A stretch of 36,955 nt of DNA from a virus. Taxonomy: Duplodnaviria; Heunggongvirae; Uroviricota; Caudoviricetes. Where the stretch lies: positions 1-36,955 of the IMG/VR virus record IMGVR_UViG_2681813166_000002; one strand, written 5' to 3'. Every line of letters starts with the position of its first letter. The stretch's first letter is position 1. Positions 1,700 through 8,729 of the stretch are shown one piece after another. The position numbers and the translations under genes are program-made. Below the pieces are notes generated by a model. The model saw only the letters and a list, made by a program, of their open reading frames with translations. It was not told the origin of the DNA and did no database searches.

Positions 1700-1739
1700 A
1701 AAAACTCCTGCCCGTAAGCTGGGCTGCTGAACATATGAA

Positions 1740-1978
1740 GACTTCTGCGCTTAATCTGGCGGTGGATGGCCGCCGTTAGTCATAACTAAGCCGCCTCGGT
1801 GAAGCGACTGAGGTATGAAGTGTTGAGTTGATTCCAGATGGTCACACCGACGTTCACACGTCCGTTTCACCCCTCGCACTCCCCGGAACCTGCTGAAATT
1901 CAAGCTGCGGATCTAAGCGGTCATCGCAACGGTGAAGCGGGTGAACTGGTGGTTGCCCCATCGCTGTGTCGTTGCGAT
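1740..1978 (-). other. Long GC-rich untranslated leader of the pL transcript with nested inverted repeats
   Basis: No ORF of useful size on the minus strand; stems such as CCATCGC...GCGATGG and ATCGCAAC...GTTGCGAT are visible. Confidence 0.3.
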
Positions 1979-1984
1979 GGAATG

Positions 1985-2060
1985 ATAATAGCTATTGCTA
2001 TTGGCTATATCAATACGTATTGTTATTGCTTGATGCGATTGGTTATTAAATCATTGATAG
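1985..2060 (-). promoter_or_regulatory. Candidate pL promoter and OL operators
   Basis: Minus strand reads TTGATA, 17-bp spacer, TATTAT (plus coordinates 2008-2013 and 1985-1990); motifs ATAGCTATTGCTATTGGCTAT and CGTATTGTTATTGCTTG recur in the OR region. Confidence 0.45.
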
Positions 2061-2154: not shown

Positions 2155-2186
2155 GAAGAAAACCCGGCGCGGTGGCCGGGTTATGG
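2155..2186 (-). terminator. Intrinsic terminator after the rex-position cassette
   Basis: Minus strand CCCGGC-caccgc-GCCGGG followed by TTTTCTT, immediately after the stop of the 130-aa ORF. Confidence 0.5.
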
Positions 2187-2573
2187 TTTTTTCATGTATA
2201 AATTTACGAGCAAAGTTATGACTGGCATTGCAACGGATAAGAGAAGAATTCCGAGCATCCAAGCCTTTAAATTACCTGTTTTTACTTCGACAAAATCCTT
2301 ACTTGCTTTATGAGATAACTTTTCGTCAATATCTACAAGTTTTTGAAGTATCGTAGAAACATCAGTTTTTATAGAAGAGGTAATTTTTGTCAGCTCTCTC
2401 ACATCCGCGCGAGTTTCCGCTAAGTTTATCTTGATGTTTTCAACGTCGGCTTCAAGTTTTGCAACTCTGACCTCGAGCATGCCATTCCCCCCACCATCAC
2501 TACCACCGTTTTTATGGTTATTTCTATCATCCCCCTCAGGGAAAAGAGGAGCAATATTATCAAAAGGATTCAT
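2181..2573 (-). CDS. Hypothetical membrane-anchored coiled-coil protein (Gly-rich N-terminus, C-terminal TM helix)
   Basis: 130-aa ORF in an AT-rich segment; heptad-like LEVRVAKLEADVENIKINLAETRADVREL; hydrophobic tail WMLGILLLSVAMPVITLLVNLYM. Confidence 0.6.
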   Translation of the reverse strand: MNPFDNIAPLFPEGDDRNNHKNGGSDGGGNGMLEVRVAKLEADVENIKINLAETRADVRELTKITSSIKTDVSTILQKLVDIDEKLSHKASKDFVEVKTGNLKAWMLGILLLSVAMPVITLLVNLYMKKP

Positions 2574-2593
2574 TTATTCTGGCCCGGATGTCA

Positions 2594-2992
2594 TTATTGG
2601 TCAACTTCGTTATTCTTTAGCCAGTAGAAAACAAGCCATGCCAAATAACTTGTAACGAATCCGCAATGTTTGCATATCACTCTAAACTCATAATCCATTA
2701 AGTTTTCTTTTGTCATATTCCATTGCTCATTACTATGTGGAGCATCAACCTTGTAAAGCCTTAAAACAGTATATTTTTCAATATTATTAAGATCTGTTTT
2801 CCCTTCCTTGCTGTTGAATTTATCCCAATGCCAGTCTTGCACTGCTATAAGTTCAGCCTTACCGCAAGATAAGCAGTTATGATTTGCCCCAACATGCTTT
2901 AAATATGCAGAAAATTGAGCGGTTGTAATATTTTTCACTTTATTATGAAAATCAGATACTTCATCACTTACAGATTTGTCATCATTACTCAT
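2594..2992 (-). CDS. Hypothetical zinc-ribbon protein with hydrophobic C-terminus
   Basis: 132-aa ORF in an AT-rich segment; two CxxC pairs (CLSCGK, CKHCGF); C-terminal YLAWLVFYWL. Confidence 0.6.
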   Translation of the reverse strand: MSNDDKSVSDEVSDFHNKVKNITTAQFSAYLKHVGANHNCLSCGKAELIAVQDWHWDKFNSKEGKTDLNNIEKYTVLRLYKVDAPHSNEQWNMTKENLMDYEFRVICKHCGFVTSYLAWLVFYWLKNNEVDQ

Positions 2993-3067
2993 TTTTGGTG
3001 CCTTATATCAAGTGATGCGTGGAGTTAATCAGGGGGCAGGTATTCATGAATATAAATAGCAAGATTT

Positions 3068-3760
3068 TTATCCATGCTTCCTGTACGTCTGCGGCATGCT
3101 CCCGATGACTTTCCCGAAGATGAACACTCGGTTCATCTCGTCTTTCTCGATCGGGTCCCACGGTGAGTAGCTCTTGTTATCAGAGATAACCAGCAGCTTA
3201 TCCTTCATCATTTGCAGACGTTTTACATGAGCGGTTTCGTCGTAGAGGAACGCATAAATCCCATCGCCGTCGAACGATTTGACGCTGATATCGACGAACA
3301 GCAGGTCACCTGGTTCGATCGTTCCTGACATGCTGTCGCCACGCACGTTAATAATGCGGATGTTTTCTGCTTTGCGGCCATCAAACATGTGACGCGCATC
3401 ATCATGGGAGTACTCAACCGATCGCAAAACTTCAACGAACTCACGGTTAATGACGCCTGGCCCTGCACTTACTTCCATATCAAGAACGTCAATCTTGAAG
3501 TATTTGGAAGAGCAGGTCGCCGGTTTTCCTGGCTGAACGCCATTATCCCTCATAGGGCCTATGCCTGAGGAAAGCCATTCAGTGCGAACCCCAAGTGCAT
3601 TAGCGATTTCGACAATTCTTGTAGATCCGCGTGCATTGCCGCTTGTCAGTCTCCAGATTGTGGGTTGAGCTACACCAGACGCCTTTGCAAGAGCGCCTTG
3701 AGACATTCCAGATTGTTCCATCGCTAGGTTTAAGCGATCAGCAAGAGTTTCTTTTTTCAT
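3068..3760 (-). CDS. cI: CI-type prophage repressor (HTH plus S24 LexA-like peptidase domain)
   Basis: HTH-like N-terminus (QGALAKASGVAQPTIWRL) and C-terminal S24-like segments (GDSMSGTIEPGDLLFVD, VKRL); start set at ATG 3760 (MKKETLADR...); the ORF track extends to a TTG at 3796. Confidence 0.88.
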   Translation of the reverse strand: MKKETLADRLNLAMEQSGMSQGALAKASGVAQPTIWRLTSGNARGSTRIVEIANALGVRTEWLSSGIGPMRDNGVQPGKPATCSSKYFKIDVLDMEVSAGPGVINREFVEVLRSVEYSHDDARHMFDGRKAENIRIINVRGDSMSGTIEPGDLLFVDISVKSFDGDGIYAFLYDETAHVKRLQMMKDKLLVISDNKSYSPWDPIEKDEMNRVFIFGKVIGSMPQTYRKHG

Positions 3761-3870
3761 AAGTTTTAATTTATACGCTTGCGTATCGATGGTCAAAACA
3801 CGTTTTGCTATTGCTATGCTTAATACGCATTGCTATTATTTGTTCATTGCAATACCAATAGGAATTGATA
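3761..3870. promoter_or_regulatory. OR region with divergent pRM (leftward) and pR (rightward) and repeated operator motifs
   Basis: pR: TTGCTA (3811-3816), 17-bp spacer, TATTAT (3834-3839). pRM on minus strand: TTGACC (3791-3796) and TATAAA (3770-3775). Repeated TTGCTATTGCTAT and CATTGCTATTAT motifs; ATTGCAAT palindrome. Confidence 0.55.
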
Positions 3871-6382: not shown

Positions 6383-6666
6383 CGGGCAAAGAGGCAATTA
6401 TTCATTACCTGGGGACTCATAAGAACTTCTGTGCGCAGGACGTTGCCGCGGTAACAGGCGCAACCGTAACCAGTATAAATCAGGCTGCGGCTAAAATGGC
6501 GCGGGCAGGAATCCTGGTCGTTGATGGTAAGGTCTGGCGAACGGTGTATTACCGGTTCGCTACCAGAGAAGAACGGGAAGGAAAGGTGAGCACGAATCTG
6601 ATTTTTAAGGAGTGTCGTCAAAGTGCCGCGATGAAGCGGGTGTTGGCTTTATATGGAAGAGAGTAG
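6379..6666 (+). CDS. ren: Ren
   Basis: 95-aa ORF MTGKEAIIHYLGTHKNFCAQDVAAVTGATVTSINQAAAKMARAG... recognised as lambda Ren. Confidence 0.9.
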   Translation: MTGKEAIIHYLGTHKNFCAQDVAAVTGATVTSINQAAAKMARAGILVVDGKVWRTVYYRFATREEREGKVSTNLIFKECRQSAAMKRVLALYGRE

Positions 6667-6730
6667 GTATGAGCAATTATTGTTACTAATTTTAGTTTTA
6701 CGACATTCGTGATAACTAAATAATTGATGT

Positions 6731-6985
6731 GTGGAACTGAATTATAAAGGGGATGATGTTTTGGGAAATAAAGAAAATATCGATTGTAAGCACACAAGAA
6801 GCTCATGCTATAAAAACAAGCAGATGAAAGATGTTATTTATATTACATTGCCTAAACTCACTGAAGAAGAAGTAGAGATTTTTAAGGGACCAATGCATAA
6901 AGCATTGCTTGCAGGGGTAAATGTTACAAAAAAGGCAGTTTCTGATGCCCTGCTAAACAAAGGGATAAAAGTTGAATTTAAATAG
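6731..6985 (+). CDS. Hypothetical small protein in AT-rich insertion; start uncertain (GTG 6731 or ATG 6824)
   Basis: 84-aa ORF on the track; weak translation signals; convergent with the 472-aa gene. Confidence 0.3.
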   Translation: MELNYKGDDVLGNKENIDCKHTRSSCYKNKQMKDVIYITLPKLTEEEVEIFKGPMHKALLAGVNVTKKAVSDALLNKGIKVEFK

Positions 6986-6996
6986 AGTAATTCAGT

Positions 6997-7028
6997 GGCA
7001 ACAATAGCACTCATTTGTGAGTGCTGTT
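6997..7028. terminator. Hairpin between convergent genes; possible bidirectional terminator
   Basis: AGCACTCA-tttg-TGAGTGCT perfect 8-bp stem with flanking extension; no clear U-tract on either strand. Confidence 0.35.
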
Positions 7029-7036
7029 GAAATTTA

Positions 7037-8455
7037 TTAGAAAATAATGTTTGCTATATCCGAGATAGCATTTAAAGAACCTCTGTGGTCACTTCCTGTT
7101 TTAGGTAAAATATAGGAATATCGAGGGTCTTCATTATATGTTAACTTCCAGTGTTTTCCATCGCTTGACGCACTGAAACCTAAGTCCTTTAAATTTCTTT
7201 GTGTTGCGCTATCCATGCTTCTGTAACCTGTTAAAGTCCTTTTAAGTAATTGGCGGCGACTCTCGGTTTCTTTATTGTATTCATTATTGGCAATTAGGGA
7301 TGATAAGATATGGTAGCTTCTACCAAATTCATTTTTATTTTTTATGGCAGTTTTTAGTGCGTCAATAATTATATTTTTGATTTCTCCATCAAAAAAGTCA
7401 GTCTCTTCACCAGCATTAAGCACAATGCTTCCTTGGGCTGAAGCTTGTGATTGAAGAGTGCGTACTCTGTGCTCTAAAGAGGAGATCTTATGCTTAAGAT
7501 CTTCTATTTGGTCATCTTTCGCAACATTATCGGCTTCGTAAAGCGCCATCAGTTCGCGTGTGTATTCTCCTCTTTCTTTGAGTGAGTTAATAGAGTCTTT
7601 CGTTTTTCTGGTTTGTATCTCACTCCATCCACTATCTGAGACAGGAGCCATTGTAGTCGTAGCTCTTACAACATCATCAAATAACTCATCTTCAAATTCT
7701 TTTGCGGTTTTCTCACCACGGCGATAAAAACTGATATTTTGACCCCGTGGCCAATAGATACCAACAGCACCAGCATAGGCATTTTTAGCATTTGTCTCAT
7801 TTTTTAGCTTAATAGAAAATAGTCTATTGCTAGGCTCAATTAATACATGTGCTAATCCGCATACCTTTCTTGCAAGGCGTTCTGGGATGATATTGTGAGC
7901 ATGTTCATTAAAAAAATACTTGGAGCTAACGTATATTATTGGTAGTCTGTTGTCAGTTTCACCATTTATAACTTTAGCTGCTATATTTAAATGTTCATCA
8001 GTATCATCTAAGGAATGAGGTTCGACTGACACCTTGAAAATATCATCAAGACCACCAGAAAATTTATCAATCAATCTCATAACAACTAATGGTTTCTTAG
8101 GTTGCGGGGCTAGATAAGCTGCATCTTGGCTTACAACGCTAGATTCCACCTGAATCCACATGGTATCAGTTTTGAGATTTTTATTAATTGAAATATCTGT
8201 TACCCATTTGTGTGGCTCAGATATTTTCGAATACCTAAAACAGCCTAAACTAGTATCTTTGTTTTTATAAGTTATTATATCAATTCTTTCATTTTTAGAC
8301 TCTATGAAGTACTCCTCGCTTTTATAATCACATACTAATTGTGCTGGAATAAAAGTTGTATGTGGTGAGTCGTTTACCCAAGAAAAACATTCATTAAAGA
8401 TCTCAGCTAGAGATGTGGAGTTTGAAACATAAAAACCAGTTGAGAAATATTTCAT
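7037..8455 (-). CDS. Hypothetical 472-aa orphan protein, candidate accessory or defence gene
   Basis: Long intact ORF in markedly AT-rich DNA, opposite strand to flanking phage genes; AAGGAAA RBS 7 nt upstream of ATG; no motif I recognise. Confidence 0.75.
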   Translation of the reverse strand: MKYFSTGFYVSNSTSLAEIFNECFSWVNDSPHTTFIPAQLVCDYKSEEYFIESKNERIDIITYKNKDTSLGCFRYSKISEPHKWVTDISINKNLKTDTMWIQVESSVVSQDAAYLAPQPKKPLVVMRLIDKFSGGLDDIFKVSVEPHSLDDTDEHLNIAAKVINGETDNRLPIIYVSSKYFFNEHAHNIIPERLARKVCGLAHVLIEPSNRLFSIKLKNETNAKNAYAGAVGIYWPRGQNISFYRRGEKTAKEFEDELFDDVVRATTTMAPVSDSGWSEIQTRKTKDSINSLKERGEYTRELMALYEADNVAKDDQIEDLKHKISSLEHRVRTLQSQASAQGSIVLNAGEETDFFDGEIKNIIIDALKTAIKNKNEFGRSYHILSSLIANNEYNKETESRRQLLKRTLTGYRSMDSATQRNLKDLGFSASSDGKHWKLTYNEDPRYSYILPKTGSDHRGSLNAISDIANIIF

Positions 8456-8472
8456 GAAATTTCCTTATTAAA

Positions 8473-8490
8473 AATGAGATTAATCTCATT
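8473..8490. promoter_or_regulatory. Perfect 18-bp palindrome in the 5' region of the 472-aa gene; candidate operator
   Basis: AATGAGATTAATCTCATT is its own reverse complement and lies between a promoter-like region and the RBS. Confidence 0.3.
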
Positions 8491-8729
8491 GGCTATGATA
8501 ATTGTTACCCTCCTTTGGATCTAGTGTTCATTTGACATAAGAACCTATTGATTCATCATAATCAACTCGCCATAATCATGTCATCGGAGCCTGAACAACT
8601 CCGGTGACTTCTGCGCTAAACGGGGACGTTTATGCGCACATACAATCCAAACTCTCTTCTCCCTTCACAGATGCAGAGATGCACCTGCGATTTTTTGCAT
8701 CCAGCGTTTGACCTCTGCGGAGGTGAAGC

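Follow-up and report, generated by a model that had tools for sequence, protein, structure and literature searches.

A two-gene cassette in the rex slot of a lambda-like prophage: one member of a modular family and a candidate phage-exclusion module

Introduction

In phage lambda, rexA and rexB lie after the repressor gene cI and before the promoter pL; RexA is a DNA-binding protein and RexB has four membrane helices. The gene for BstA is likewise among those placed after a prophage repressor. RexAB has been studied for more than 60 years and is still poorly understood, and the cI–N interval that holds rexAB and bstA has been described as a mosaic diversity hotspot (PMC8585504). Here we analyze two small genes, A and B, in the corresponding slot of a lambda-like Escherichia coli prophage. 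The DNA, IMG/VR record IMGVR_UViG_2681813166_000002 (Caudoviricetes; 36,955 nucleotides), is called the window below. Coordinates follow its numbering, and the order of the cassette is read along the minus strand.

The A–B pair of the window belongs to a widespread modular family. New in this work are the recognition of this family and of its fixed genomic addresses, the two-module build of its members, a link between the N-terminal tail of B and its partner, and a conserved internal start in B. A sequence-only reading of the window, made without database searches, had proposed A and B as a candidate exclusion or abortive-infection pair. That interpretation is partly supported: the slot, the architectures and the candidate status hold, and the family context and the dual start had been missed. 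Judging by position and architecture, we tentatively take the cassette to be a lysogen-expressed two-part phage-exclusion module at the inner membrane, at somewhat less than an even chance.

Results

Two small genes under purifying selection lie between the repressor gene and pL

The cassette of the window is 100% identical to the chromosome of E. coli LR-50, where the prophage adjoins proA and a tRNA-Thr gene. It consists of two minus-strand open reading frames (ORFs) between a cI-type repressor gene and pL, with the following parts:

2594–2992, minus strand: gene A, 132-residue zinc-ribbon ORF
2864–2875, minus strand: first CxxC knuckle of A (C40-L-S-C43); its columns do not vary in alignments A2 and A3
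2663–2674, minus strand: second CxxC knuckle of A (C107-K-H-C110); these columns, too, do not vary in A2 and A3
2574–2593, minus strand: A–B spacer of 20 nucleotides
2181–2573, minus strand: gene B, long form, 130-residue ORF with an in-frame TAA directly before its ATG; phrog_3556, E=8e-39
2535–2570, minus strand: tail motif of B, N-P-F-D-N-I-A-P-L-F-P-E, kept as NPFDNITPLFPD in a 68%-identical pair (L003)
2487–2495, minus strand: internal run of Gly codons, GGTGGGGGG, which resembles a Shine–Dalgarno sequence and whose final G is 6 nucleotides before the Met32 ATG
2181–2480, minus strand: predicted short form of B, 99 residues without the tail, ATG at 2478–2480 (Met32) with a conserved upstream Shine–Dalgarno sequence
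2205–2261, minus strand: C-terminal membrane helix of B, residues 105–123; Kyte–Doolittle 19-residue maximum 2.40, within the modelled helix

The sequence-only reading had described two small AT-rich genes on the cI strand followed by a terminator, and this was borne out: the ORFs are followed by a hairpin at 2161–2182, and their G+C content is 33–41%, against about 51% in the flanks. Both genes are real, since both are under purifying selection. The ratio of nonsynonymous to synonymous substitution rates (dN/dS) was 0.11 for A against a 68%-identical homologue, and 0.14–0.18 for B against homologues in which synonymous changes approach saturation. The form of the cassette found in the window is uncommon: 10 of 5,426 complete E. 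coli genomes have it, and at high identity it occurs in no sequenced phage.

The pair belongs to a family with fixed genomic addresses

The comparative work was based on a scan of viral contigs, which gave 139 confirmed matches, 80 of them retrieved, and 69 unique contexts, in which not all neighbouring genes were annotated; a narrow-pattern scan of genome contigs gave 10 loci. Homologues of B fell into 87 clusters at 90% identity, from Enterobacter, Klebsiella, Citrobacter, Serratia, Yersinia, Salmonella and others. The A–B pair recurred in the 69 unique contexts, spread over Enterobacterales prophages. The usual layout was a divergent cro-like gene, a repressor gene, a small gene in the A position and B, and the gene directly upstream of the pair resembled a Pfam-supported repressor in 48 of the 69 contexts. 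Gaps between A and B were tiny or overlapping (−1 to −14 nucleotides in many, +20 in the window). The B protein of the window has the features that define the family: a glycine run, the sequence M-[LI]-E-x-R-V-A-K-L-E, a coiled coil, a C-terminal membrane helix and a small partner gene directly before it.

The proposed rex position between cI and pL/OL was supported by HK544, a wild phage with lambda immunity. HK544 carries a B-family pair, HK544c104/HK544c103, exactly in the place of rexAB and ending at the annotated terminator Timm. The same pair is ECs2991/ECs2992 of the Stx1 prophage of E. coli O157 Sakai (VT1-Sakai H0053), and H0053 precedes the annotated pRM terminator of VT1-Sakai. In P22-like phages (e.g. 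UPF_BP1), Mnt is followed by A and then B in the mnt-to-gene-16 interval of immI, which in P22 itself holds orf59a and sieA; family members were found in Salmonella P22-like phages. One element has the pair after the integrase gene at the prophage end, and a few pairs (L019, L069) are additional genes in a tail-gene region. Within the 69 contexts, no pair had a holin or endolysin gene beside it, as far as neighbours were annotated. Since VT1-Sakai and HK544, family members have been annotated merely as conserved hypothetical or "membrane protein", and literature searches by accession, gene name and concept found no functional study of any of them. At one Klebsiella- or Enterobacter-type locus (L033:3364-4344), a 326-residue minus-strand ORF, possibly an insertion sequence, parts the repressor gene from A and B.

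Phages whose cI is about 87–89% nucleotide-identical to that of the window fill the slot differently:

PhiR30_1 (L001:3284-4638): PADLOC candidate PDC-M63 (A and B), a DUF6932 protein plus a 310-residue partner
4A7 (L108:1503-2919): PADLOC candidate PDC-M11 (A and B), an ASCH-domain protein plus a 353-residue partner
PhiR68_2: an unclassified two-gene cassette of 341 and 149 residues
PhiR34_1: empty

B combines a variable tail with a coiled coil and a membrane helix

The B protein consists of a variable, disordered N-terminal tail, a glycine run, the near-invariant segment MLEARVAKLEADVENIK, and a coiled coil that ends in a C-terminal membrane helix. In the AlphaFold2 (AF2) model, residues 1–29 were of low confidence, with helix only at 3–6, and residues 30–127 formed one continuous helix. 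Residues 32–100 hold a single heptad register in which 14 of the 20 a/d positions are L, I, V or M. The Gly-rich N-terminal part, coiled coil and C-terminal transmembrane anchor described by the sequence-only reading were essentially upheld. Residues 105–123 are the sole membrane-grade segment, and just seven residues follow it. From this we infer that B is a tail-anchored protein whose bulk faces the cytoplasm.

The near-invariant segment spans 17 residues (M-L-E-A-R-V-A-K-L-E-A-D-V-E-N-I-K). Across B homologues, third codon positions vary freely within it, so the constraint acts on the protein; a DNA-level cause, either recent recombination or an RNA element, was rejected on this ground. The sequence NPFDNI(A/T)PLFP of the tail is kept between the window and L003 through four synonymous codon changes, and because of this we conclude that the tail is translated and constrained as protein. 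We propose that this motif serves as a docking site for A. A search of the B profile against solved structures gave nothing (best E=0.21), and scans of A and B with Pfam, NCBIfam, PADLOC and PHROG returned only PHROGs of unknown function and coiled-coil noise.

The P22-like address and the membrane helix invite a different reading, namely non-abortive superinfection exclusion, in which an inner-membrane assembly of B, together with A, blocks the entry of phage DNA and the cell survives, as with P22 SieA, HK97 gp15 and T4 Imm. P22-like relatives do hold the pair in the sieA interval of P22. The pairs that are extra genes among tail genes have a counterpart in HK97 gp15, likewise described as a moron element, and a B-like variant with a long (PA)n stretch after its membrane helix could reach the periplasm. 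The seven residues past the helix of the window's B, however, leave almost nothing in the periplasm, where injection conduits assemble, and a pure entry block is hard to reconcile with a soluble zinc-binding partner held at the distal tip of a stalk in the cytoplasm. Nor did Pfam and PHROG scans show sequence similarity to the SieA, gp15 or Imm families. We consider such an entry block unlikely, though it deserves serious attention.

A conserved internal start predicts a tail-less form of B

Met32 is invariant in the 34–35 aligned B homologues and absent from one retrieved locus only (L085); it falls outside the core positions of the heptad. Of 50 unique contexts, 44 have GGAGG or GGGGG exactly 7 nucleotides ahead of the Met32 ATG. 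At −4, either GGA or GGG serves as the Gly codon in 45 of 49 cases, and GGT never does, against a background of 0.31 for GGA and GGG among the Gly codons of neighbouring long genes; at −5, the Gly codon is GGC or GGT in 30 of 33. A very distant B member keeps the same arrangement of Shine–Dalgarno sequence and ATG. This codon pattern is what selection for a Shine–Dalgarno sequence within a coding region should look like. On the strength of the conserved Shine–Dalgarno sequence and the near-invariant ATG, we predict a tail-less product of 99 residues, B-short; a 99-residue version of B is called in some public records. Translation of B thus probably has two starts, of which the inner one is predicted from its conservation.

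The start of the long form, B-long, is 20 nucleotides past the stop codon of A in the window and has no clear Shine–Dalgarno sequence. In many relatives it overlaps the A stop codon, and this overlap suggests that B-long may be made in step with A.

Two starts recall the dual products of holin/antiholin pairs, and they raise the question of whether A and B serve the life cycle of the prophage itself, tuning induction, the lysis–lysogeny switch or the timing of lysis as an XhlA-like holin accessory or through a RexA-like bias of the switch. Profiles of the XhlA or "hemolysin" and holin/antiholin kind were weakly matched by some B members, phrog_937 by 4 of 35 (best E 7e-6) and Pfam XhlA by 3 of 35, and one sister variant is named "hemolysin XhlA" in public records. 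A part for RexA in the lambda switch is documented. The XhlA scores are, however, far under the Pfam gathering threshold of 34.7 bits. The best, from a sister variant, was 19.3 bits, the three members matched at E>=0.008, and XhlA membership of B was rejected. The XhlA-type likeness noted from the sequence thus stood for the overall build and fell for the family score, the window's B having no XhlA match at E<=1. Homology to a lysis or other late function was not found: the XhlA and holin matches are sub-threshold, and upstream of the pair in the 69 contexts stand mostly repressor-like genes (48), with other pairs in P22 immI, among tail genes or behind an integrase gene and none seen in a lysis cassette, as far as neighbours were annotated. 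The high diversity of A and of the tail, described below, suits an arms race better than phage housekeeping, and close relatives manage without the cassette, the slot of PhiR34_1 being empty. We judge a role in the phage's own life cycle to be distinctly unlikely.

A is a soluble zinc-ribbon protein

The zinc ribbon proposed for A was upheld by four invariant cysteines (C40, C43, C107 and C110), which form two CxxC knuckles about 63 residues apart. The "hydrophobic C-terminus" ascribed to A did not survive as a membrane segment. A has no membrane-grade hydrophobic stretch (maximum Kyte–Doolittle 1.29), and its C-terminal end was modelled as a short amphipathic helix (residues 118–127); a membrane segment in A was rejected on both counts. 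The family is small: a set of 1.8 billion proteins gave 13 representatives at E<=1e-3. The only match of A in family libraries was PHROG 4293, of unknown function. The AF2 model, built from 12 sequences, had a middling predicted local distance difference test score (pLDDT 66). It had no significant structural neighbour in the PDB or among viral models, and a sequence search of A against solved structures likewise gave nothing (best E=0.32). We propose that A is the soluble partner or specificity subunit of the pair.

A, the tail and the membrane stalk vary as modules

Both halves of the pair are exchangeable. The tail of B covers 20–70 residues and is wholly different between lineages. The coiled coil varies in length, in some members by tandem repeats, and the membrane helix that ends it is of at least five unrelated types across the family. 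At Photorhabdus/Xenorhabdus-type loci (L017:4890-5774, L011:5001-5447, L056:4866-5435), B has 148–294 residues and its stalk is lengthened by tandem repeats, so that the length of the stalk is itself variable; the repeat ARLTKSENRFDSKLTEVExKFD occurs many times. The A position is filled by at least four unrelated protein classes:

class 0: beta-rich, 132–172 residues, the commonest
zinc-ribbon class: includes A of the window
further classes: two, of about 90–105 residues
singleton: one more CxxC protein, outside all clusters

Class 0 is paired with five membrane types of B, and the zinc-ribbon class with three.

Similarity between B tails tracked similarity between A proteins (Spearman 0.14, nominal p 1e-7, with pairs that are not phylogenetically independent), and similarity between B cores did not (Spearman −0.05). 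Zinc-ribbon A proteins only 26–36% identical to that of the window precede B-like tails with LLFPEE or YLFPQE, to be compared with PLFPE in the window. Among the tails that accompany more remote zinc-ribbon A proteins, the related motifs LFP[EQ]E, VVPF and FGDFP are found. The simplest reading of these patterns is that A binds the B tail.

Two further observations concern the partners of other A proteins. Class-0 A proteins (e.g. L007:4578-4994) have a conserved N-terminal K-I-[AS]-F-x-[FY]-P motif, and the B tails paired with them start with a short alternating hydrophobic stretch; the two might dock by strand addition. At two loci (L104:3877-4431, L105:3877-4407), the B-like partner of a distant zinc-ribbon A has a variable-length (Pro-Ala) repeat after its membrane helix, which should lie in the periplasm, and no GGAGG-ATG internal start.

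The pair resembles type II toxin–antitoxin (TA) loci in layout: a gene for a small soluble protein precedes one for a membrane protein, the two are closely spaced or overlap, and A covaries with the tail in a partner-specific way. On that comparison B would be a membrane toxin, A an upstream antitoxin binding the tail, and the pair an addiction module that stabilizes the prophage. The conserved internal start would, however, yield a tail-less B beyond neutralization by A. A has no recognizable DNA-binding antitoxin domain, no TA family appeared among the Pfam or NCBIfam matches of A or B, and placement in one operon downstream of a repressor is untypical of autoregulated TA loci. A TA function is highly improbable, the least likely of the alternatives considered here.

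The modular pattern bears also on the idea that the pair is lysogenic-conversion cargo unrelated to phages, acting in host envelope physiology or stress tolerance, or else a gene product that at present does nothing. Accessory genes of prophages can serve many purposes at slots of this kind, and neither A nor B has homology to any characterized defence protein. Against this stand the strong purifying selection on both genes, the repeated placement of the pair in RexAB and SieA slots, and a combination of module shuffling with hypervariable specificity parts that typifies conflict systems. We regard conversion cargo as very unlikely.

Signals around the cassette are compatible with transcription from pRM

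The signals and genes that surround A and B are the following:

3768–3796, minus strand: pRM-like promoter TTGACC-17-TAAATT, 9/12 in a consensus scan and by itself within chance; in the OR operator cluster
3068–3760, minus strand: cI-type repressor; Pfam Peptidase_S24 (E=1e-17) and HTH_3 (E=1e-6), phrog_4 transcriptional repressor (E=8e-68)
2993–3067, minus strand: cI–A spacer of 75 nucleotides, with the near-palindrome GTATTCATGAATAT at 3040–3053
2604–2576, minus strand: promoter-like site TTGACC-17-CAGAAT, overlapping the A stop just before B; 9/12, within chance
2161–2182, no strand assigned: GC-rich hairpin of 8 base pairs overlapping the B stop codon; the terminator scan called the plus strand
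1985–2026, minus strand: pL with OL operator repeats (TTGATA-17-TATTAT, 10/12, at 2013–1985), which marks the slot boundary
from 1699 leftward, minus strand: kil, gam and bet

The repressor ORF is open back to a TTG at 3796. The RefSeq start of the identical LR-50 locus is the ATG equivalent to 3760, and the longer ORF is probably not used. The −10 element of the pRM-like site ends 7–8 nucleotides ahead of the cI ATG; for this reason transcription from it would begin at about that ATG and, by analogy with lambda, give a leaderless cI message. The terminator scan found no minus-strand terminator-like site in the cI–A spacer, and the consensus scan called no promoter there. From the synteny and from this lack of a terminator between cI and A, we infer that A and B are co-transcribed with cI, expressed in the lysogen and act in exclusion. 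In the spacer, positions 3040–3062 read GTATTCATGAATAT followed by AATAGCAAG, both similar to the half-sites (TATTG/CAATA) found in the OL and OR operators. The sole promoter-like site called inside the cassette by the consensus scan is that at 2604–2576. Its position mirrors that of lambda pLit before rexB, and its score is not above chance.

The hairpin at 2161–2182 is likely the terminator of a cI–A–B transcript, in the position of Timm, and Timm-type terminators are annotated at the equivalent place in HK544 and VT1-Sakai. The hairpin is bidirectional, and the T-run that follows it is better on the plus strand (ATGGTTTTTT) than on the minus strand (TTCTTCC, read from the sequence). The sigma-70-like pL sits among operator-like near-palindromes common to the OR region.

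The leader of the pL transcript (window 1700–1985, minus strand) has no N-like gene between pL and kil. About 280 nucleotides long, it is about 89–90% conserved in 4A7- and PhiR-type phages and mostly unannotated there. The first 110 nucleotides of the transcript can fold as two adjacent stem-loops, with a z-score of only −1.5, and Rfam matched no RNA family there or anywhere else in the window. The leader might be an RNA-based antitermination element. A second AT-rich island (6600–8500, 33–37% G+C) follows the ren gene. It contains an ORF (7037–8455, minus strand, 472 residues) that weakly matches HEC-07, a PADLOC candidate (E=1e-9), and may be another accessory or defence gene.

Discussion

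As an exclusion module, the cassette could work as follows. A pRM transcript would run through cI, A and B to the hairpin at 2161–2182. The C-terminal helix of B would insert in the membrane and leave a coiled-coil stalk of about 70 residues in the cytoplasm. Two forms of B would be made, B-long (130 residues, no clear Shine–Dalgarno sequence) and B-short (99 residues, with the strong internal Shine–Dalgarno sequence at Met32). The tail would be present on B-long only, and through its PLFPE-type motif A, the zinc-ribbon protein, would be brought to the stalk tip. A and the tail together would form an exchangeable specificity or recognition part, and the coiled coil and membrane helix an output part that can likewise be exchanged. 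The near-invariant MLEARVAKLEADVENIK segment would link these parts and probably nucleate oligomerization, in which the coiled coil would also take part. On sensing, through A, some cue from a phage that infects the cell, the B assembly would change and the membrane be compromised, in an abortive infection with Rex-like logic. The ratio of B-long to B-short may set the threshold or shield the prophage itself, as Esc does for SieB and excess RexB for Rex; an effect of RexB dosage on Rex is noted in PMC8585504. We favour abortive, Rex-like logic over a periplasmic block of entry because all of A and nearly all of B should be cytoplasmic.

Several points weigh against exclusion by the pair. No PADLOC 2.0 model was matched by A, B, the other A classes or the B variants, and for this reason it is position that points to a role in defence. 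The literature searched gives no function for any family member, the A fold (pLDDT 66) reveals no sensing function, and B, almost wholly cytoplasmic, gives no direct clue to membrane damage. The covariation of tail and A is modest and could be simple linkage, the tail adjoining A. Recombination at the conserved junction, with the Gly-codon run as the joint, could alone keep tail and A together. The operator-like near-palindrome in the cI–A spacer could mean that A and B are regulated separately, and the T-run of the hairpin is better on the plus strand than on the strand that would be transcribed.

On a broader view, the pair may represent a large class of prophage immunity modules, in which a specificity half (at least four unrelated small proteins, each with a matching tail) and an output half (a stalk of variable length with one out of five or more membrane helices) meet at the near-invariant 17-residue junction and are regulated by a tail-less isoform. 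This generalization is possible, though on balance doubtful. If it is true, the rex slot of lambda-like phages and the sieA interval of P22-like phages hold a natural plug-and-play sensor–effector system. From the window by itself one would greatly underestimate how common the family is; no function has been assigned to it, and the defence-system library searched does not contain it. Its modular build gives direct experimental handles and could reveal how the sensing of a phage is coupled to an output by a small protein anchored in the membrane. Should it turn out not to be a defence system, the conserved Shine–Dalgarno sequence placed within the gene by a deliberate choice of rare Gly codons would be a clean case of overlapping coding and translation signals.

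Comparison with known systems

With XhlA (PF10779) and DUF2951, from the lysis regions of Bacillus and Staphylococcus phages, B has a build in common: a coiled coil of about 60–90 residues and one C-terminal membrane helix. B adds the tail, the glycine run, the internal start and the upstream partner, and it adjoins repressor genes, not holin or endolysin genes.

Two starts in one gene are known from P22 and lambda. The single gene for SieB and Esc gives two in-frame products from two starts, one form modulating the other, and the 13/13' dual product of P22 is annotated. SieB/Esc and lambda S107/S105 may be likened to the predicted B-long and B-short by analogy only, and SieB has no similarity to B. 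In holins the two starts are a few codons apart and add a charged residue or two, whereas the B starts are 31 codons apart and the extra part is the putative docking tail. Dual-start holin/antiholin genes belong to lysis cassettes; B does not, although it has the conserved internal Shine–Dalgarno sequence and ATG.

P22 SieA is a prophage-expressed inner-membrane exclusion protein, and its slot is common to the P22-like relatives of the pair and not to the window. It is a single protein with three predicted membrane helices and, unlike B, has no partner and no coiled coil; no similarity to A or B was detected.

The slot of RexA/RexB is the one that A and B occupy: after cI, before pL, on the cI strand, with a Timm-type terminator and presumably on the pRM transcript. 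The order of the two genes, a soluble component and then a membrane component, is also the same. The proteins are not. As the sequence-only reading had expected of a pair different from RexAB, the Pfam, PHROG, PADLOC and NCBIfam matches of A and B include no Rex family. RexB is a polytopic channel component with four helices, whereas in B one C-terminal helix follows a long coiled coil, and RexA is a DNA-binding protein, whereas A is a 132-residue zinc ribbon.

PDC-M63 and PDC-M11 occupy the same slot in phages with closely related cI, as two-gene cassettes on the cI strand, and their proteins are unrelated to A and B; all they contribute is evidence that cargo of the defence type gathers in this slot. 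In PADLOC-DB 2.0, A had no match and B only coiled-coil noise (PbeC, E=0.0026; LmuB, E=0.021).

The closest relation is with HK544c104/HK544c103, which is true family. Its B-type protein has the glycine run, an M-E-x-R-h-A-x-L-E segment and the same type of C-terminal membrane helix, and, as in the window, the B-type gene has a small partner gene upstream and lies in the rex slot; in HK544 an annotated terminator follows. The partner is of a different class from A of the window (about 94 residues, no cysteine knuckles), and the B protein starts with a 70-residue N-terminal domain in place of the short tail of the window's B.

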